Shown in pieces: positions 1 through 12,615 of a stretch of 12,615 nt of DNA. Both the position numbers and the translations under genes were made by a program. The DNA is from a virus (Duplodnaviria; Heunggongvirae; Uroviricota; Caudoviricetes). The notes beneath the pieces are model-generated. The model was not told where the DNA came from. It was given only the letters and a program-made list of their open reading frames with translations, and did no database searches. The number at the start of each line of letters is the position of its first letter. Positions within the stretch are counted from its first letter, which is position 1. The stretch lies in IMG/VR virus record IMGVR_UViG_2541047681_000005; one strand, written 5' to 3'.

Positions 1-1230
1 ATGCGCAGAGCACTTAACAAACTGAGTGATACACAGCTAAGGAAAATCAACGGCACACCCGCCCAAAAAACAGCCTTTCTTAATGACGGTGGAAACCTGA
101 GCGTCAGGCATTCAACCAGCGGCCTTTTAACCTGGTATTTCACCTACAGGGCCGGAACGGGAAGGGGAGCACGACCGGAACGGATTAAGCTGGGAAATTA
201 TCCTGATCTGAGTCTGAAAGCTGCCAGGGAAAAAGCGGCACAGTGTCGCGCTTGGCTTGCTGAGGGGAAAAATCCACGTCATGAGATGAATTACACCGTA
301 CAGAAAGCGTTAAAGCCCGTAACGGTTGGCGATGCGCTTACCTACTGGCTTGAGTCTTACGTAAAGGAAAACCGCGTGGATTATGCCGCCCTGAAAAAGC
401 GCCTTAATAATCACGTAATACAGCACATTGGTGCTATGCCGCTGGATAAATGCGAGCTACGGCACTGGCTGGCCTGTTTTGACCAGGTGGCAAAGCGAAC
501 GCCTGTTACTGCCGGATTCTTGCTACAGACGTGCAAACAGGCGCTTAAGTTCTGCCGGAGGCGGCGCTATGCAATCAGCAACGTTCTTGATGATATGAGT
601 GTGGCGGACGTTGGGAAAAAACCGGATATAAGCGAGCGTGTCTTAAGCACCAAAGAACTTGGCGAATTATTGCAGGCACTGGACAAAAAAATATTTTCCC
701 CTTACTACGTCGCACTAATCCGCCTCCTGATTGTTTTCGGATGCCGGACGGTAGAACTGAGGTTATCGGAGATCAGCGAGTGGGATTTTACCGAAATGCT
801 CTGGACCGTGCCGAAAGAACACAGCAAAACGAAGGTGGCAATATTCCGGTCCATACCGGAAGCAATACTGCCGTTCGTCACGCAGCTGGTGGAGCAGAAC
901 AGGCACACGGGCTTATTGCTGGGGGAAGTGAAACAGGAAACAAGCGTGTCGCAGTACGGCAGATTAGCGCACAGGAGGCTAAAACACCCTCACTGGTCAC
1001 TGCATGACATCCGGCGCACCTTTACAACGATGCTGAACGATTTAGGCGTGGATCCTCACGTCGTGGAGCAGCTTACAGGTCATCAGATGCCAGGGATGCA
1101 ACGAGTCTATAACCATTCCCGTTATCTGGATGCGAAACGTGACGCGCTGGATATGTGGACGGAGCGGTTAGGGATACTGGCGGGAACACATGAAAACGTA
1201 ACCACATTGCCAATAGCCAGAGAAATATAA
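1..1230 (+). CDS. int: Tyrosine site-specific integrase, P4-type
   Basis: 409-aa ORF starting at window base 1. N-terminal arm-binding-like region (LNDGGNLSV...WYFTYR...LGNYPDLSLKAARE) and C-terminal catalytic region with HDIRRT (H-x-x-R) and a terminal VYNHSRY tyrosine motif. Upstream RBS not visible because the window starts at the ATG. Confidence 0.9.
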   Translation: MRRALNKLSDTQLRKINGTPAQKTAFLNDGGNLSVRHSTSGLLTWYFTYRAGTGRGARPERIKLGNYPDLSLKAAREKAAQCRAWLAEGKNPRHEMNYTVQKALKPVTVGDALTYWLESYVKENRVDYAALKKRLNNHVIQHIGAMPLDKCELRHWLACFDQVAKRTPVTAGFLLQTCKQALKFCRRRRYAISNVLDDMSVADVGKKPDISERVLSTKELGELLQALDKKIFSPYYVALIRLLIVFGCRTVELRLSEISEWDFTEMLWTVPKEHSKTKVAIFRSIPEAILPFVTQLVEQNRHTGLLLGEVKQETSVSQYGRLAHRRLKHPHWSLHDIRRTFTTMLNDLGVDPHVVEQLTGHQMPGMQRVYNHSRYLDAKRDALDMWTERLGILAGTHENVTTLPIAREI

Positions 1231-1836: not shown

Positions 1837-2196
1837 ATGAATACTGGATATTCTCCCGAACAAGGGCGGGGCTTCGTTCGTCCTGAAAAACAGAATCTGC
1901 AAAATTTTGCCGAAATTATTCCGGTTATTTCCGGCCTTACTGGCGGGAGTGAAACCAATATTGTTAACGCCAGAGCGTTGCAGATGTTTGATGATAAAAA
2001 GGGAGTAAATTTAACTTACACCCCTGACGGCAATCAGAATATGAGCATTATCTCTGAGTCAGGTTTCTACAAACTAATAAAAACAAAAAGCGCCCCGTTG
2101 CCGGAGCGCCTTTGTGAACAATTAACCTACTGCGCAAAAAATGAATCTGAGCAGTGGGATTATATCAACCATGTGGAGAAGCGCCACAATTGCCGA
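1837..2196 (+). pseudogene. Possible decayed Bro-N/antirepressor-like remnant (N-terminal part of a 428-aa composite ORF)
   Basis: The first ~115 aa (DGNQNMSIISESGFYKLIKTKSAPLPERL) weakly resemble the Bro-N/KilA-N motif (ESGLYSLI...). The remainder of ORF 1837..3123 is Cys/Arg/Ser-rich and low in complexity, crosses a divergent promoter region and overlaps a better-supported minus-strand gene, so the long ORF is not one real protein. Confidence 0.25.
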
Positions 2197-2543
2197 ATAA
2201 CGGGCAAAACAAAGGCCACCCGCTACGGTGGCCCCTCGACACAAGCTACACGTTATCCCCAACGCATGAGCATTGCCAACAATGCCACATTTGCGGCTGG
2301 TGGGCAATGCAATCAGTCTGGTTCAGTTCGTTGCCATACCTGCAATGAGCGCTTTTCCCTGTACTCTTTAAGGAATTGCTCAAGGGCAAAAGCACATGGC
2401 GCGAATCTTTCTGATTCATGCTCTATCTTTCTGCGCCGTCTTTTCCGTGCCGGTGATAATGTTTTGGTCAATTCTTTATCGGTCATTGTGTTGTCCTGCA
2501 TAGCAATGCGCCGTAGTTACTCACACCACGGCGCTGGTGATGG

Positions 2544-2723
2544 TTACTCCTGCTCTTTGGCCTTGCGGCGCTGGCGGCGTTTGATTTCGCCGCGCATGGC
2601 TGCGTTTATAAACTGTCCCGTGCTTTCGCCTTCTTCTTTCACGTTCTCCATGCCTTCAATAATTTCATGGGCAATACGTGCAGTTACAGATTGTGATTTT
2701 GCATTCTTTGGACCCGTTGCCAT
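2544..2723 (-). CDS. Hypothetical small basic protein (59 aa), divergently transcribed from the left operon
   Basis: Internal ATG at 2721..2723 (complement) preceded by RBS GAGGGG with 6-nt spacing; product MATGPKNAKSQ...EIKRRQRRKAKEQE. Candidate -35/-10 (TTCAAA/TATATT) on the minus strand, overlapped by operator-like repeats. Family not recognised. Confidence 0.45.
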   Translation of the reverse strand: MATGPKNAKSQSVTARIAHEIIEGMENVKEEGESTGQFINAAMRGEIKRRQRRKAKEQE

Positions 2724-2744
2724 GTTTAACCCCTCATGTTTTTG

Positions 2745-2826
2745 GTGTAAGACAATATACACGAAAAAAAAATATTTTGAAGGGTTGACGTGTAAGACAC
2801 CATTGTTTTACATTGTGTCTTACACC
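2745..2826. promoter_or_regulatory. Divergent promoter region with three copies of an 11-bp operator-like motif GTGTAAGACAC
   Basis: Motif at 2745..2755 and 2790..2800 (direct) and 2815..2825 (inverted). Candidate + strand promoter -35 TTGACG (2785..2790) and -10 TTACAT (2808..2813), 17-bp spacer; one operator copy sits in the spacer and the inverted copy at the predicted +1. Candidate minus-strand promoter overlaps the first copy. Confidence 0.55.
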
Positions 2827-2922
2827 TTATTGATGAAAGGCACAGAAACGACGAAACCCCGCACTGTAGGAGCAGTAACGGGGCTTCTAACCACCAACGA
2901 TAGCAACAGTATCGAGGTAGCT

Positions 2923-3123
2923 ATGAGAAATCATACCACACACCCGAAAGGGCGGGACTCGCACAACCTGAATAAATACATCTGGCGTTTTATCGCCCTG
3001 AGCACGGCACAACCGCGCGTGATTACCATTGAGGCCACCAGCGAACAGGAAGCACGCCAGCAATCTCCGGCTGGCTGCGTGATGGTATTTGCTGCCCGTA
3101 TTCGTCAGGGGGTAGGCTTATGA
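2923..3123 (+). CDS. Small protein (66 aa), first gene of the left operon; possibly Icd-like, otherwise hypothetical
   Basis: ATG at 2923 with RBS GAGGT upstream; product MRNHTTHPKGRDSHNLNKYIWRFIALSTAQPRVITIEATSEQEARQQ.... Its stop overlaps the next ATG (ATGA). The Icd-like assignment is a recollection of P4-like prophage annotations and is unverified. Confidence 0.45.
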   Translation: MRNHTTHPKGRDSHNLNKYIWRFIALSTAQPRVITIEATSEQEARQQSPAGCVMVFAARIRQGVGL

Positions 3124-3350: not shown

Positions 3351-3570
3351 AACCACACCGGACGCAGCAGAAGAAGCAATGCAAATACTGATACGTGCGC
3401 TCGTTGATGTTACCCACATGGTGGAGATTATGGAGAGAAAATCACAGTCGGAGCACGACAAAAGAAAACTTAAAACAATAAAAATAATTGCCAAAAACTC
3501 GCTGATAAAAGTTACAGACATCCTTAATGAGGACATTAAAAGAATAAGGGAGAAAATTTGTGATGCATAA
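3340..3570 (+). CDS. Hypothetical protein (76 aa)
   Basis: ATG at 3340 preceded by RBS GGAGGGG, overlapping the previous gene by 11 nt. The longer six-frame ORF 3286..3570 probably starts at this internal ATG. No family recognised. Confidence 0.5.
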   Translation: MCNKTTPDAAEEAMQILIRALVDVTHMVEIMERKSQSEHDKRKLKTIKIIAKNSLIKVTDILNEDIKRIREKICDA

Positions 3571-3790
3571 AATCCCTTTTGAAGTATTAATCCACTCTGA
3601 AAACGCATTAATTAAAGCACGCGAAATGAATGCGTTGTTAATTAAATTAATTGAAGTGCCGGAAGGTGGCGAAGATCATTCATCATTAATGTTTGCCGCT
3701 GTTCAGACATTATTGACACCTGTTATTGATGAACTCAATAAGGCTATGGCAATTCACGAGAATAATAAAGCGCCCCACACCGGAGAATAA
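3563..3790 (+). CDS. Hypothetical protein (75 aa)
   Basis: ATG at 3563 (GTG at 3560 also possible) with RBS AAGGGAG upstream; overlaps the previous gene by 8 nt. No family recognised. Confidence 0.5.
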   Translation: MHKIPFEVLIHSENALIKAREMNALLIKLIEVPEGGEDHSSLMFAAVQTLLTPVIDELNKAMAIHENNKAPHTGE

Positions 3791-6413: not shown

Positions 6414-6832
6414 CAGCACAGATAGCAGCTTACGGGCGGCTGGTGGACGACCCGCAGGTAAAACAGACCAGCAAGGGCACACCGATGACGCTGGCGCGTA
6501 TGGCGGTCCCCCTTCCGTGCAGCCAGGCAGATGACGGAACGGCGACGATGTGGTTATCCGTCCTGGCATTTGGCAGACAGGCCGAAGCACTGGAAAGGCA
6601 CCGCAAGGGTGAACTCCTGAGCGTGGCGGGTAACATGCAGATCAGCCAGTGGACTGGGCAGAACGGAGAAACGCGGCAGGGCTGGCAGGTTATCGCAGAC
6701 AGTGTAATCAGTGCGCGAACGGCGCGACTGGGCGGCAAAAAAGGTCAACAGGGCCAGGCTACTGACGCGCTGAACAGGGCAAAACAACAGGCGGGGAATG
6801 ATGATCCGTACGGGGATAACATACCGTTTTAA
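6410..6832 (+). CDS. SSB-like single-stranded DNA-binding protein (OB fold with SSB-type C-terminal tail)
   Basis: 140-aa ORF with RBS GGAGAGGTGG. N-terminal region aligns by eye with the E. coli SSB OB fold (GRLVDDPQV vs GNLGQDPEV; WLSVLAFGRQAEALERHRKGELLSV vs [25 protein letters not shown]). Gly/Gln-rich linker and C-terminal DDPYGDNIPF resemble the SSB DDDIPF tail. Confidence 0.65.
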   Translation: MTAQIAAYGRLVDDPQVKQTSKGTPMTLARMAVPLPCSQADDGTATMWLSVLAFGRQAEALERHRKGELLSVAGNMQISQWTGQNGETRQGWQVIADSVISARTARLGGKKGQQGQATDALNRAKQQAGNDDPYGDNIPF

Positions 6833-6848
6833 GCGACGAGAGACAGAA

Positions 6849-6870
6849 GCCGGAGCAATCCGGCTTTTTT
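6849..6870 (+). terminator. Rho-independent terminator after the SSB-like gene
   Basis: Hairpin GCCGGA-GCAA-TCCGGC followed by six T (6865..6870). Confidence 0.7.
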
Positions 6871-6908
6871 ACGGGTCCTCCTGGCGGGGTGGGCCTGAAC
6901 ACGGGGCG
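6871..6908 (+). other. Degenerate cos-like sequence (pseudo-cos)
   Basis: ACGGGTCCTCCTGGCGGGGTGGGCCTGAACACGGGGCGGGAAGCGCGG resembles the cosQ/cosN segment at 9313..9360 (ACGGGTCCTTTCCGG...ACGGGGCGGCGACCTCGCGG), and is preceded by the same terminator hairpin, but lacks the intact GGGCGGCGACCT core. Confidence 0.45.
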
Positions 6909-7044
6909 GGAAGCGCGGAAAAAAGCGCATTTTTGTGATTTTATCGTCATCATCATCATGAGCGTAATTTATTGTTTTTAATTGTTTTGATGCAAAAAAG
7001 ATGATGGTTGTGGTTAATTTTCGTTCGACATCTTTGCAGGCAGA

Positions 7045-7087
7045 TAAAAAAGCCCGATAAGGTCAGAGGTGGCTTATCGGGCTTTTG
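7045..7087. terminator. Bidirectional hairpin terminator candidate
   Basis: 11-bp perfect stem AGCCCGATAAG / CTTATCGGGCT with 11-nt loop, A-run upstream and T-run downstream. Confidence 0.5.
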
Positions 7088-7247: not shown

Positions 7248-7454
7248 ATGGCTGAAGAGAAAAAAGGCGGTGTTTCGGTGTACATAAGCCCCGAAATCGT
7301 GGAGGTGCTCAAGCAGCGCCACAAAAAAAACTATGAGGCTGGCGTGGCGGCTGGACTGGATCCGCTGATGACGCCGGAGCCGTCGATAGGTTCACTTGTA
7401 CGCTCTTATTTACTTGCGGCGCTTGGGATGCATAAAAATTATGGGGGTGAATAA
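7248..7454 (+). CDS. Hypothetical protein (68 aa), translationally coupled to the major capsid gene
   Basis: ATG at 7248 with RBS AGAGGA; its stop TAA overlaps the capsid ATG (TAATG). No family recognised. Confidence 0.55.
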   Translation: MAEEKKGGVSVYISPEIVEVLKQRHKKNYEAGVAAGLDPLMTPEPSIGSLVRSYLLAALGMHKNYGGE

Positions 7455-8509
7455 TGGCAGGCAAAGCAACGGCACTTAACACTAACCAGCTTTTCATGTA
7501 CCTGAATCGCGGGGATATTGCGGATTTTAAATTCAGCCCTCTGTTTACTACGCTGTTTTTCCCGAACGTGGCGACATTCAGCACGCAAAACATCATGCTG
7601 GATACCCTGGACATTGAAGAAGTCACCATGTCGGCGTTTTGTTCGCCTATGGTGGGTAGCCAGGTTCAGCGCGATAAAGGGTACGAAACCAGCACGATTA
7701 AACCTGGCTACATGAAGCCAAAGCACGAAATCGATCCAACGAAAACCATCATGCGCATGGCTGGAGAAGATCCGGCACAGCTTAACGACCCTACCTATCG
7801 CCGTATGCGCCTGATTACTGGCAATATGCGCCGCCAGATAAACGCCATAAAAGCGCGCGTGGAATGGCTGGCGGTAAATGCGGTAACGACCGGAAAAAAC
7901 ATCATTGAGGGCGAAGGCATAGAGCGCTATGAAATCGACTGGAAGATACCGGAAAAAAACATCATAGAGCAGGCCGACGGGAAAAAATGGTCAGAGCAGG
8001 ACAAAGAAACCCACGATCCAATCTATGATATCGAACTATACGCCGATCAGGCTGGTTGCCCCGCAAACGTCATGATTATGGGCGCTGAGGTATGGCGAAC
8101 GTTACGCAGCTTTAAAAAATTCCGTGAGCTGTACGATCTTTCCCGTGGTTCAGAATCCGCCGCCGAACTGGCCTGTAAAAACCTGGGCGAAGTGGTGAGC
8201 TTTAAAGGCTATCTTGGTGATCTGGCCCTTATCGTCTATTCCGGCAAATACACTGACAGCGATGGTACCGAAAAATATTTCCTTGAGCCTGATTTGCTGG
8301 TCCTGGGCAACACCAACAATAAAGGGCTGGTGGCCTATGGTGCGATAATGGATCAGGAAGCGGTAAGAACGGGCGCAACACAAAACATGTTTTACCCGAA
8401 AAACTGGATTGAGGACGGCGATCCGGCGATTGAGTACGTGCAGACACACAGTGCACCGCAGCCGGTACCGGCAGATATTCGCAAATTTGTTACCGTCAAA
8501 ATTGGTTAA
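7454..8509 (+). CDS. Major capsid protein, lambda gpE family
   Basis: 351-aa product aligns by eye along its length with lambda gpE (341 aa): [163 protein letters not shown] upstream. Confidence 0.9.
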   Translation: [351 protein letters not shown]

Positions 8510-8521
8510 CGGGGGGATTCT

Positions 8522-8857
8522 ATGGACACTCCATACATTGAGTTATTTGCAGGCAGTCAGCAGGTCGCCACGACGCTGGTACATTTTGCCGCTGATGCTG
8601 GCGTTATTCAGGAATTTACCCCGCTGATGCTGGCAGACAATGGCGAGTTTAAGCCGTGGGATGGTCAGGAATCTGGCAAGGCTGTTTATCTGACCTCGTA
8701 CCCTGTGGACACGTCAAAGCAGAAATCAGCACAGTGTTACAAGACGGGGATTTTCAATATTGCCGCCGTTAACTGGCCTGAGAGCGTCGACACCGATGCG
8801 AAAAAATGCGCCGCCTTTGCGGGTTCTGGCGTATCCGTTCAGCCGCTGGCCCGATAA
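8522..8857 (+). CDS. Head decoration protein, lambda gpD family
   Basis: 111-aa product (lambda gpD is 110 aa) with TPLMLADNGEFKPWDG vs TPLMLDTSSRKLVAWDG and YKTGIFNIAAVNWPESVDTDAKKCAAFAGSGVSVQ vs [44 protein letters not shown] upstream. Order is capsid then decoration, the reverse of lambda (D then E). Confidence 0.85.
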   Translation: MDTPYIELFAGSQQVATTLVHFAADAGVIQEFTPLMLADNGEFKPWDGQESGKAVYLTSYPVDTSKQKSAQCYKTGIFNIAAVNWPESVDTDAKKCAAFAGSGVSVQPLAR

Positions 8858-8869
8858 GCAGGGGGAACG

Positions 8870-9283
8870 ATGGCAACGAATGAAAGCGTCATGACGCTAC
8901 CGCTGGCGAGTAAATTTAAAGCCGAAGCGCGGGCAATGGCTGACAGAGGTTTATCAACCTACGAGGCCGTATATCAACTCAACAAACTGGAAGAGCAGGA
9001 CAAGCCGCGCGCTGATGCGATTATGGCGCTTCATGAACATAACGACTATCAGCCGCTGTTACGTGCAATGGCAAACGTGCCATGTATTAGCGTCGATAAT
9101 GCTCGTGAAATCCTGAACATGACCATAGAGCAGGAGCGCCCAAAGGTTGCGCCGGAGCTTACCGCAGCCTTTGAAAACTTTATGGACATGCACAGCCCGA
9201 AAGCCGTATCACCCGGCATGGCATACGACGGCAGAAACCAGGGCGATGAAGGCGACGTCGATCGCATACTGAAAACCATCTGA
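8870..9283 (+). CDS. Hypothetical protein (137 aa), last gene before cos
   Basis: ATG at 8870 with RBS AGGGGGA; followed by a strong terminator. No clear similarity to lambda FI or other remembered head proteins. Confidence 0.6.
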   Translation: MATNESVMTLPLASKFKAEARAMADRGLSTYEAVYQLNKLEEQDKPRADAIMALHEHNDYQPLLRAMANVPCISVDNAREILNMTIEQERPKVAPELTAAFENFMDMHSPKAVSPGMAYDGRNQGDEGDVDRILKTI

Positions 9284-9289
9284 CATAAG

Positions 9290-9312
9290 GCCGGAGAAAT
9301 CCGGCTTTTTTT
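9290..9312 (+). terminator. Rho-independent terminator after the capsid operon
   Basis: Hairpin GCCGGA-GAAA-TCCGGC followed by seven T (9306..9312); near-identical to the hairpin at 6849..6870. Confidence 0.75.
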
Positions 9313-9445
9313 ACGGGTCCTTTCCGGCATATGGACCCGTTACGGGGCGGCGACCTCGCGGGTTTTCGCTATTTATGACGTTTTTCCGTGAAGGTGACAC
9401 CACCACCACTTGATTAATATTTAACCATGCGGTTAAGGTAACATT
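9313..9445 (+). other. Lambda-type cos site (cosQ-like, cosN, short cosB) upstream of the TerS-like gene
   Basis: TACGGGTCCTTTCCGG...GTTACG|GGGCGGCGACCTCGCGGGTTTTCGCTATTTATGA closely matches the lambda cohesive-end region as remembered. Predicted 12-nt cohesive end GGGCGGCGACCT at 9345..9356. One R-site-like element (CGTTTTTCCGTG, about 9381..9392) and an AT-rich stretch follow. Confidence 0.75.
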
Positions 9446-9886
9446 ATGATTGATAAAGCTTGTTTTGTAAGTCAGCAGGAAATAGCTGAACATTTCAAGG
9501 TTAACAGAACCACTATTCGCGCATGGACCAAACAGGGGATGCCGTATCTTAATGCGGATCGCGGAAAGTCTGGCGGTTATCACATCGGGCATACATTGCT
9601 TTGGTCTTCAGGTAAAAGCCGTCTTGAGGCCATCAGATATCACGTAGAAACCAGTGCGCTGGAAAAAATTATGTTTGCCAGGCTGCTTTCATCTGAGCGT
9701 GACGAGTACTCCAGTGAAGAAACAGAACATCGATTTGATGAAGGTTTGCAGATTTACGGCTATTCACCGGAAGATGTGAGCAAGGCACGAAATAAAATGG
9801 CTGGCTTTCTGGCTGGGTGGCGTCATGCCGTAAGCGTTCGCCGTGCCAGCATGGAACAATCAGTCGTTACAGAACAGCAAAGTTAA
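9446..9886 (+). CDS. Small terminase-like protein, lambda Nu1-type DNA-binding N-terminus with divergent C-terminus (TerS/Rpp-like)
   Basis: 146-aa ORF about 90 bp downstream of cosN, as Nu1 is in lambda. N-terminus QQEIAEHFKVNRTTIRAWTKQGMPYL aligns with Nu1 KKQLADIFGASIRTIQNWQEQGMPVL (winged HTH). Shorter than Nu1 (181 aa) and the C-terminal region does not resemble Nu1's. Confidence 0.7.
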   Translation: MIDKACFVSQQEIAEHFKVNRTTIRAWTKQGMPYLNADRGKSGGYHIGHTLLWSSGKSRLEAIRYHVETSALEKIMFARLLSSERDEYSSEETEHRFDEGLQIYGYSPEDVSKARNKMAGFLAGWRHAVSVRRASMEQSVVTEQQS

Positions 9887-9915
9887 AAATCACTTTCTGT
9901 TACGCCATCAAATAC

Positions 9916-10012
9916 GCAATACAACAACCACGTATTTTTTTAAAACTATTTGATTCAATTAGCATTTTTTTATTTTTAGCATCAAAAAAACACTATCAGG
10001 TTGTTGTATTGC
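9916..10012. repeat. 14-bp perfect inverted repeat flanking a 69-bp AT-rich spacer
   Basis: GCAATACAACAACC (9916..9929) and its reverse complement GGTTGTTGTATTGC (9999..10012); a further direct ACAACAACC copy lies near 10060. Spacer contains T/A runs and repeated TAGCATTTTT. Confidence 0.55.
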
Positions 10013-10090
10013 TCTTTATTTTTACTTAGTTATCAAATGGATATGACAAACAATTAAACAACAACCTCCCTCTAAAAAAGCTCATAAATA

Positions 10091-10145
10091 GCGAAAAACC
10101 GCGAGGTCGCCGCCCCGTAACGGGCCATAATTCCAGGAAGGACCC
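10091..10145 (-). other. Second cos-like sequence in inverted orientation (cosQ/cosN-like, no recognisable cosB)
   Basis: Reverse complement of 10091..10145 reads CGGGTCCTTCCTGGAATTATGGCCCGTTACGGGGCGGCGACCTCGCGGTTTTTCGCTATTTATGA, about 85% identical to cos at 9313..9380 including an intact GGGCGGCGACCT. No R-site-like element or TerS gene follows it on the minus strand. Confidence 0.6.
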
Positions 10146-10461: not shown

Positions 10462-11154
10462 CTGGTTGATATTTTCGAAATTCGCCAGCGGCGAACATCG
10501 GGGAAACCAGCCTAACCCGTTGATATTTTCGGAAACCTCAATTTGAGGAAGTCGGCGCGGTAACTCGCTGAACTTAAAGCAAAGCGCAAAATTGCGCTTG
10601 CTGAATAATCATTATGATTACGCAGATGATTAAGGAATGACCGAAGGCGGAAATTCGCCTGTGGTTAATGGGGGAGTTGCAGATCTGCAACTCGACCATG
10701 AAACTACGGAAACTACCCGTAGTTTGGGTAGTAAGAGTAACACCCAGATTTTGGGGCTTACTCGTGATACCCAAATTTGGGGTATCGGTGGCAACCATAA
10801 CGACTTTCGTTACGGTTGATGCTTTTACCCCATTGGGGGAAAGGTATTACGATAATCATAACACCTACCGAACAGGTAAAGCCCACCAGCCTGATTAACG
10901 TTTAACCGGAAAAAAATTCCGGTAGGTGGGGATCCCCATATAGACATTAACGCCCCTCATGAATTGGTGCGCTTCCCCCTGGAAAGATGATCCGCCTGTA
11001 TATTTCTTGTGTCTATTTGTTCCACGTTGTTTCATACGGTGCACCGAACGGTGTAGTTAATGGTGTAGTCAATTTGCGATTTTTGGCACTTTTTCAGTGT
11101 AGATTATTTAATTAAATCAATGGTTTGTCTTGATATAGTGATAAAAGGACATAT
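10462..11154. other. Palindrome-dense non-coding tract between the last satellite ORF and phoQ (possible attR region or structured RNA)
   Basis: No convincing ORF. Direct repeat TAAC-nGTTGATATTTTCG-AAA at about 10459 and 10513. Hairpin-forming palindromes roughly every 30 bp, e.g. AAGCGCAAAATTGCGCTT, GTTGCAGATCTGCAAC, GATACCCAAATTTGGGGTATC, CCGGAAAAAAATTCCGG, TGGGGATCCCCA, CGGTGCACCG. Tandem GGTGTAGT(T/C)AAT at 11050..11073. Confidence 0.4.
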
Positions 11155-12615
11155 TTATTCATCTTTCGGCGCAGAATGCTGGCGACCAAAAATCACTTCC
11201 ATCCGCGCACCGCCCAGCATGCTCTCTCCGGCGACGATTTTACCCTCATATTGCTCGGTGATTTCGCGGGCTACCGCCAGCCCCACACCTTGCCCAGGGC
11301 GTAAAGTATCAACCCGTTGACCACGGTCGAAAATGACCTCTCGCTTGCTTAATGGAATACCGGGGCCATCATCCTCGACCACAATATAGAGATGCTCGTC
11401 GGTTTGCCTTGCAGAAATTTCGACAAACTCGAGGCAATATTTACAGGCGTTATCCAGCACGTTGCCCATCACTTCGACAAAATCATTCTGCTCACCAACA
11501 AAGCTGATTTCTGGCGAGATATCGAGAGAGATATTGACCCCTTTGCGTTGATACACTTTGTTCAGCGCCGAGGTGAGATTGTCCAACAGTGGCGCGACCG
11601 GATGCAGCTCGCGGCTAAGCAATGTCCCGCCGCGCATACTGGCACGATGCAGGTAGTAGCCAATTTGCTGTGAAATGCGGCTGATTTGCTCCAGCATTAC
11701 CGGCTCAGCATCACTGACGCTCATCTTCTCACTACGCAGAGAACGCAGCGTACTTTGCAGCACCGCCAGTGGCGTTTTCAGACTATGGGTCAGGTCGGTG
11801 AGCGTTGTACGATATTTGTCGTAACGTTCGCGTTCACTTTTTAACAGTCGGTTCAGGTTTCGTACCAGACTGGTCAGTTCTCGCGTTGTGGCTGGATTGA
11901 GCAATTCACGGTTATGTTCTTCCAGTTCGCGGACTTCTTTTGCCAGGGCTTCGATGGGGCGTAAACTCCACCAGGCGGCGACCCACAGCAGCGGGATCAC
12001 TAACAGCAGATTGGCTGAGAGCACATAGATAAACCAGCTCCAGACCATATAGGAACTTTTTAGCTCCACCGGAATGGTATCCACCACCACAATGGTTAAC
12101 TTTGGCATCCGCGATGTTGCCGGGTAGACGTTTACCGCCACCGAGTGGGTCATCTCCGCGTCGTCATCATCTTCCCGCACTTCCTGCAACTGTTGCTGTA
12201 TCGAATGATCTCCACTCAGCAAGAGGCTGGTATCGTTAACATCCGCTTCAATTTCATGAAAACCATTCGATTTCAGCCAGTCAGGCTGGATCATCTTCAT
12301 CAGCCAGGGCACGTCACGTTGCGCCCATAAAAGCTGCCCGTTCTCATCATAAATTAGTGTCATCGTGGGGCTTTGCTTGTCGATATTTTCGGGTAACTCG
12401 ACATGCAACTTATTGTTTTCCCACTTCGCAAGGGTATAGAACAGATTGCTCTCGCCACGTAACAGCCGAAACGTGGTTTTATCGAAACTGACGCTATAAC
12501 CGATCAGCGCAACCATTCCGTAGGCAAGCGAAAGCACCAATACTACTGCTGCCGTTGCTAACAGAAAACGTACCCGCAGCGAGAGCGGGAAAAAAAGATG
12601 CAGTAATTTTTTCAT
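11155..12615 (-). CDS. phoQ: Sensor histidine kinase PhoQ (PhoP/PhoQ two-component system), complete
   Basis: 486-aa minus-strand ORF whose ATG is the last codon of the window. Two transmembrane segments, periplasmic acidic cluster EDDDDAE, H-box [15 protein letters not shown] and G-box DDGPGIP; reads as full-length Escherichia/Shigella-type PhoQ. Confidence 0.97.

Follow-up and report, generated by a model that had tools for sequence, protein, structure and literature searches.

The PICI between roxA and phoQ

The window (the whole stretch of DNA that was analysed, 12,615 nucleotides) contains a Gram-negative PICI of the EcCICFT073 type. This element is about 11 kb long and lies between roxA and phoQ. 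The window starts with a tyrosine integrase (int; 1-1230) and ends with phoQ (11155-12615, minus strand). Between these two genes, we identified an AlpA-type excisionase/regulator, a DUF4222 protein, a D5-type primase, and an SSB, using Pfam and PHROG. The same stretch also encodes a gpE-like capsid protein, a gpD-like decoration protein, a 137-aa protein, and a 146-aa Rpp protein. This is the gene content of a PICI: int, alpA, and a primase and origin are present, and terminase, portal, and tail genes are absent. A direct repeat of ~35 bp that is common to the left and right junctions in CFT073 is found at 11040-11075, where the island ends before phoQ, and corresponds to attR.

EcCICFT073 is the model Gram-negative PICI (PMC6092414), and it occupies the same roxA/phoQ site, near phoQ in the CFT073 chromosome. 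The window is 91-98% identical to it over the major blocks, and the aligned blocks contain int, primase, the capsid module, rpp, cos2, and phoQ. The segments of the window at 3369-3764, 6739-7045, 9883-10073, and 10556-10875 have no counterpart in the CFT073 island. All of these except 9883-10073 are variable or accessory regions, and the region of the PerC-family regulator of CFT073 falls in one of them. Also, a 428-aa ORF at 1837-3123 is almost certainly not a gene; in the CFT073 annotation, this stretch is divided among several small genes of both orientations, YlcI/YnfO-family and Icd-like genes among them.

Upstream of cos1, the packaging site that we discuss below, is a capsid-like module (7248-9283) with a 68-aa ORF and three genes. 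These encode a lambda gpE-like major capsid protein (7454-8509; PF03864, E = 5.9e-52), a gpD-like decoration protein (8522-8857; PF02924, E = 1.3e-17), and the 137-aa protein (8870-9283), which matches the C-terminal end of the head maturation protease (phrog_53 positions 495-567, E = 2.3e-9). The matching part of lambda's C gene overlaps the scaffold Nu3. In published knockouts of the capsid and decoration genes, interference was not relieved. The module is closed by a hairpin and T-run, AAGGCCGGA-GAAA-TCCGGCTTTTTTT (9287-9312, plus strand; RNA fold -15.7 kcal/mol, z = -4.0), and the T-run adjoins the flank of cosQ. We found this hairpin by RNA folding, and it is absent from the pattern scanner's list.

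A lambda-type cosQ and cosN

We numbered the positions of cos so that bp 1 is the first base of the cohesive-end 12-mer. As the lambda reference, we used the right and left genome ends joined together, and we compared them to the window without gaps. By this comparison, a lambda-type cosQ-cosN spans 9312-9378, and this plus-strand segment around cosN is identical to the helper type. The cohesive-end 12-mer, GGGCGGCGACCT (9345-9356, plus strand), is the same in EcCICFT073 cos1, and it is identical to lambda's cohesive end at 12/12 positions. The flank at bp 13-34 is identical at 22/22 positions (34/34 for bp 1-34 as a whole), and on the 5' side of cosN, TACGGGTCCTTTCCGG and GTTACG are the same as in lambda. 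The cosQ heptamer, GGGTCCT (9315-9321, plus strand), is 30 bp before bp 1, which is the spacing in lambda (where the heptamer is at 48473-48479, counted on the right-end sequence). A first-pass annotation of this DNA had described a lambda-like cosN with its flanks, preceded by a cosQ-like element, and the alignment with the lambda genome ends confirms both.

The cos segment also matches 99 lambdoid phages (blastn against 50,697 phage records). The top match (E = 7e-26) is 91.8% identical over 9308-9392. Among the 30 of these 99 matches that were listed, the phage alignments end between bp 35 and bp 52, and the similarity to phages gives out near bp 46-52; past bp 47, the window agrees with lambda at 17-28% of ungapped positions, a background level. 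Versus EcCICFT073 cos1, there are 2 substitutions in 176 nt (at -31 and bp 89), and these are outside cosQ, cosN, and the box that we describe below. In short, the site has a cohesive end with conserved flanks and a cosQ at a fixed distance, as a lambda-type cos does, but it does not have a lambda-type cosB (R3, R2, and R1 plus the IHF site I1).

We also found a second exact copy of GGGCGGCGACCT, at 10104-10115 on the minus strand, which the earlier annotation did not mention. This is the cosN of an inverted cosQ-cosN (cos2; 10070-10145, minus strand) that lies ~760 bp from cos1, has GGGTCCT at 10139-10145 with 30-bp spacing, and has no CCA box. The equivalent cos2 of EcCICFT073 has its cosN at 13298-13309 of the fetched locus (L003), also on the minus strand. 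Homology to the CFT073 cos2 ends ~40 bp into the cosB side, and CFT073 has no equivalent of 9883-10073, which makes the cosB side of cos2 a variable junction. In EcCICFT073, cos2 is dispensable for transfer, and its deletion even raises transfer (PMC6092414).

A short cosB with a private element

The cosB of cos1 had been described as shortened, and it is: the downstream ORF starts at bp 102, versus bp 191 (Nu1) in lambda. Matches to the lambda R consensus CGTTTCCNTTCT with up to 2 mismatches are absent from 9357-9445; elsewhere in the window there are three, which is the level expected by chance.

A single R-site-like sequence had been proposed for this cosB. That sequence, CGTTTTTCCGTG, is present at 9379-9390 (bp 35-46, plus strand), but it corresponds to the spacer between cosN and R3. 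It aligns column for column with the spacers of lambda (AAATTTTCCGGT) and PhiR5_1 (AAATTTTTCGGG), and when lambda, 2H10, PhiR34_1, and PhiR5_1 are aligned to the window, its place is taken by the spacer that precedes their R3. It is outside the R3 slot (lambda's R3 is at bp 50-65), and it matches the R sequence only with a 2-nt gap. Its TTTTCC(G) core is common to lambdoid phages, and its edges (bp 35-37 and bp 44-47) differ from one Rpp locus to another. Because CGTTTTTCCGTG aligns with the phages' own spacer, it is not private to the island.

The private cosB is in the R3 slot, at 9392-9409 (bp 48-65, plus strand). This is the segment that Murialdo and Feiss proposed as R3-PICI: they suggested that Rpp binds bp 48-65 (PMC9026076). 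The window has the sequence expected of R3-PICI, ACCACCACC, at bp 55-63. The core of the private cosB is a CCA box, CACCACCACCAC (9398-9409, bp 54-65, plus strand), which occurs once in the window. It is followed by TTGATTAA (9410-9417, plus strand), which is conserved in the alignment of Rpp loci. We infer that Rpp recognizes the 9392-9409 region, with the box as its core, and that it most likely makes its contacts on the box. We also scanned for sigma-70 promoters near the box and the rpp start; the best score of 9/12 matches was no better than for shuffled sequences, so we make no claim of a promoter there.

Conservation of the CCA box across Rpp loci

We retrieved Rpp loci via homologues of the protein, instead of via DNA motifs, and then aligned their cos regions. 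This gave seven non-redundant loci: the E. coli RppA type, the E. coli RppB type, Klebsiella, Phytobacter, two from Salmonella, and one further contig. The box at bp 54-65 makes up twelve consecutive invariant columns (7/7 loci), and TGA at bp 67-69 is invariant as well (7/7). In the same seven loci, the cosN 12-mer varies in 8 of its 12 columns (for instance, GGGTACGTGTAC, GGGCGGCAGACT, GGGCGACGCGCT, or GGGCGGAGCGCT), so the box is constant while the cohesive-end sequence tracks different helpers. The cosQ heptamer is invariant in all of the Rpp-type loci that extend far enough (6/6).

A fixed box beside a cosN that tracks the helper is the pattern that would be expected of the address that Rpp reads, and as far as the alignment goes, it supports the R3-PICI proposal. 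This support covers more taxa than the four published sites. Also, this cross-genus evidence does not depend on any DNA motif, and it points to the CACCACCACCAC box, not the R-like 12-mer, as the address for Rpp.

The TTTTCC(G) core of the spacer is also kept in 6-7 of the 7 Rpp loci, as well as in phages, and it resembles the core of an R site. This raises the question of whether the site is bipartite, with a helper TerS domain on TTTTCCG (bp 38-44) and Rpp on the CCA box (bp 54-65). Murialdo and Feiss left open the contact of PICI DNA with the DNA-binding domain of TerS (PMC9026076), which leaves room for such an arrangement, and if it is correct, then the satellite's cos is read jointly by TerS and Rpp, not by Rpp alone. 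However, phages that have a separate R3 hold the same motif in the same place. Because the phages have both the motif and their own R3, a role for TTTTCCG in cosN nicking, spacing, or IHF binding is more likely. Also, the two elements are ~18-19 bp apart (centre to centre), a distance that does not correspond to a whole number of helical turns. We consider a bipartite site to be unlikely, and we favor the box as the element that distinguishes the island's cos.

To look at more sites, we searched IMG/VR with the pattern TTATGA-N17-22-CACCACCACCACNTGA, which matched 27 contigs. Since this set was selected on the box, it informs us about spacing, element size, and cosN diversity, and not about conservation of the box: 25 of the 27 matches are Rpp-type sites, all on contigs of ~4-15 kb, and the remaining two are chance matches on longer contigs. 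All 25 Rpp-type sites have cosQ at -29 to -31. In 23 of the 25, the ATG of rpp falls at bp 101 or 102, and in the other two the contig stops short. These 25 sites have five different cosN 12-mers, and they include one RppC island. A looser pattern, TTATGA-N17-22-CACCACCACCAC, gave 120 unrelated matches in genome contigs from all phyla, which are most plausibly chance matches to a CAC repeat. A protein-pattern scan based on the Rpp alignment found no relatives in the one-genome-per-species contigs.

Two Salmonella enterica loci have an unusual layout. In the first (L010, 2400-3429), a cos with a CCA box is followed by a 142-aa RppC-like ORF and then by an RppA-like paralogue. The second (L011, 2400-3441) is arranged likewise, a 141-aa ORF preceding its rpp. 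In both, the prophage genes FI, FII, Z, U, and V are next after the rpp genes. This is similar to the layout of the "helper-embedded satellites" described in a preprint (10.1101/2022.07.18.500453).

Lambdoid cos cores are common: we found one in 4,638 of 5,426 complete E. coli genomes, while cos1 together with the rpp start is present in only 97 of the 5,426. Given how common the core is, cos1 might be an inert relic, a prophage cos that has decayed within a defective element and plays no part in mobilization, and cos2 of the same island does look like such a relic. But cos1 is surrounded by a full PICI set (int, alpA, D5-type primase, SSB, and rpp) and by att repeats; cosQ, cosN, their spacing, the box, and the start of rpp are maintained from genus to genus; and the near-identical CFT073 site is functional in experiments (PMC6092414, PMC6739421). 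A prophage relic would be an extremely improbable explanation, and both the PICI gene content and the cross-genus conservation led us to drop it.

RppA is not a stand-alone small terminase subunit

The gene directly after cos is rppA (9446-9886, plus strand), whose ATG is at bp 102 of cos, as expected for a site of the Rpp type. It encodes a redirecting-phage-packaging protein of 146 aa that is 99% identical to RppA from EcCICFT073 (c1503; 142/144 residues) and that matches the crystal structures of RppC (PDB 6HLK and 6HN7; E = 5.7e-31). The residues that read DNA are present (...VNR21T22TIR25AWTK29...). R21, T22, R25, and K29 are invariant in an alignment of 13 Rpps, and the recognition helix RTTIRAWTK shows little or no variation among the Rpp proteins that we retrieved.

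RppA resembles TerS only in its DNA-binding part. Residues 7-47 match positions 12-52 of the 199 positions in the TerS profile (phrog_57), with no match to the rest of the profile, and lambda Nu1 structures in the PDB match residues 8-55 only. The TerS-like part is just the winged-helix DNA-binding domain, and the TerL-binding C-terminus is missing. A full-length TerS has oligomerization and TerL-binding domains, and RppA does not. RppA is not a stand-alone small terminase subunit.

The first-pass annotation had suggested that the satellite acts through its own small subunit. For this to be so, RppA would have to be self-sufficient, replacing the helper's Nu1 and binding the single R-like CGTTTTTCCGTG. 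RppA does have a Nu1-like winged-helix N-terminus, CGTTTTTCCGTG contains the R-core heptamer TTTCCGT, and there are sister islands at the same locus with a full-length terS (see below). On the other hand, the oligomerization and TerL-binding parts of the profile are absent from RppA, while the TerS of the sister islands matches positions 8-193. Also, the helper's terS is required genetically for the transfer of EcCICFT073 (PMC6092414), and Rpp acts as a heterocomplex. As for the DNA, 9357-9445 has no ungapped match to the R consensus, and bp 35-46 corresponds to the phage spacer and differs between Rpp loci, whereas bp 54-65 is invariant. The idea of a self-sufficient small subunit is largely refuted, and we think it very unlikely to be correct.

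A model for packaging

Much of the function of this site can be understood from studies of EcCICFT073. Transfer of EcCICFT073 by lambda and phi80 needs cos1 (PMC6092414). RppA binds the helper's TerS, and the structure of RppC with TerS shows a heterodimeric DNA-binding unit (PMC6739421). RppA reduces the transfer of plasmids with the phage cos (lambda-cos) and increases the transfer of plasmids with cos1; swapping cosB between cos1 and cos2 moves the dependence on RppA; and a phi80 chimera with the cosB of cos1 becomes RppA-dependent (PMC6739421). With the substitutions R21A/T22A, RppA keeps its block on the phage but loses its ability to promote packaging from cos1 (PMC6739421). In the published mechanism, the Rpp-TerS complex passes over the phage cosB and reads the island cosB, and TerS brings TerL to the helper-type cosN (PMC6739421).

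These experiments with cos1 and RppA agree with the earlier proposal that a helper-type cosN and a private cosB redirect the helper's terminase, with the correction that the private element is at bp 54-65. We are highly confident that the segment is a functional packaging site, namely the cos1 orthologue of an EcCICFT073-type PICI, and that it is served by RppA. The function is assigned by very close homology to the validated cos1 of EcCICFT073, and nothing in the sequence is contrary to this explanation. Our direct results are the anatomy of the site, its identity to a validated site, and its conservation across taxa. The Rpp-TerS complex, the dependence of cos1 on its cosB, and the requirement for R21 and T22 come from publications on a 99%-identical system.

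We propose that upon induction of a lambdoid helper, the island would replicate into concatemers, and RppA would heterodimerize with the helper's Nu1/TerS through its TerS-mimicking DNA-binding domain. The resulting heterocomplex would stop reading the phage's R sites and would bind the island's cosB. Most likely, the recognition helix of Rpp (R21 and T22) would sit on the CACCACCACCAC box at bp 54-65, in the slot of lambda's R3. The TerS partner would recruit the helper's TerL, which would nick the helper-identical cosN at 9345-9356, and packaging would start. When enough DNA for a phage-sized head has been packaged, TerL would stop at a downstream cos by means of the conserved cosQ (9315-9321).

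The att repeats put one unit of the island at ~11.1 kb. Given the general limits on head filling in lambda, a head would probably hold about four unit lengths (~44 kb) between the initiating and the terminating cos. This estimate follows from the ~11.1-kb unit together with the observation that packaged EcCICFT073 DNA is phage-sized (PMC6092414).

Comparison with known packaging systems

The cos site is real and is already known: it is near-identical to the described cos1/RppA system of EcCICFT073. The two islands share the chromosomal site, the gene order, cosQ, cosN, cosB, an rpp that starts at bp 102, and an inverted cos2 downstream. Besides the segments of the window that lack a counterpart, they differ in the length of Rpp (146 aa here versus 144 aa) and in the cosB side of cos2. 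The mechanism was solved both genetically and structurally in 2018-2019, on an island that is 91-98% identical to this one (Fillol-Salom et al.), so our analysis adds no new biology to it. The site illustrates how a satellite steals the packaging motor of its helper phage.

The site resembles lambda's cos in its cosQ heptamer, the 30-bp spacing, the 12-nt cohesive end, and the identical sequence at bp 13-34. Unlike lambda, it lacks R3, I1, R2, and R1, and a box of CCA repeats occupies the R3 slot. The distance from the nick to the next gene is 101 bp, versus 190 bp in lambda, and the next gene is rpp instead of Nu1/A. As described in PMC9026076, the cosB of phage N15 is likewise minimal: its one recognition element is a single R3, at the R3 position, and the next gene is close by, with gene 1 starting at bp 89. 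N15 differs in having a complete TerS of its own and another R sequence.

Sister PICIs are found at the phoQ site in E. coli O26:H11 11368 (L015) and 2015C-3905 (L014, 2480-3233). They have the same backbone, the same cosQ, and an inverted cos2, and their cosN is identical to ours in 2015C-3905 and has one mismatch in 11368. They also have a private cosB, with similarity to phages ending at bp 46, but in place of rpp, they have a full TerS of 180 aa (matching phrog_57 at 8-193 of 199) that starts at bp 146. It is in these sister islands, and not in this window, that the satellite has its own small subunit. Their cosB contains (GGT)5 at bp 46-61 as well as a perfect inverted repeat, ATACACCAAC...GTTGGTGTAT, just before terS. 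The (GGT)5 is the reverse complement of the CCA box. We considered whether the sister TerS shares the recognition helix of Rpp and rejected this, as the helices are unrelated. The sister islands meet the same need through a full TerS paired with another private cosB.

Finally, SaPIs are also satellites that divert the packaging of their helper and interfere with the phage (PMC6739421). SaPIs use either a complete satellite TerS along with a separate inhibitor (the pac SaPIs, with Ppi) or an unmodified helper cos (SaPIbov5), whereas here, a single protein, Rpp, would do both jobs via its heterocomplex with the helper's TerS.
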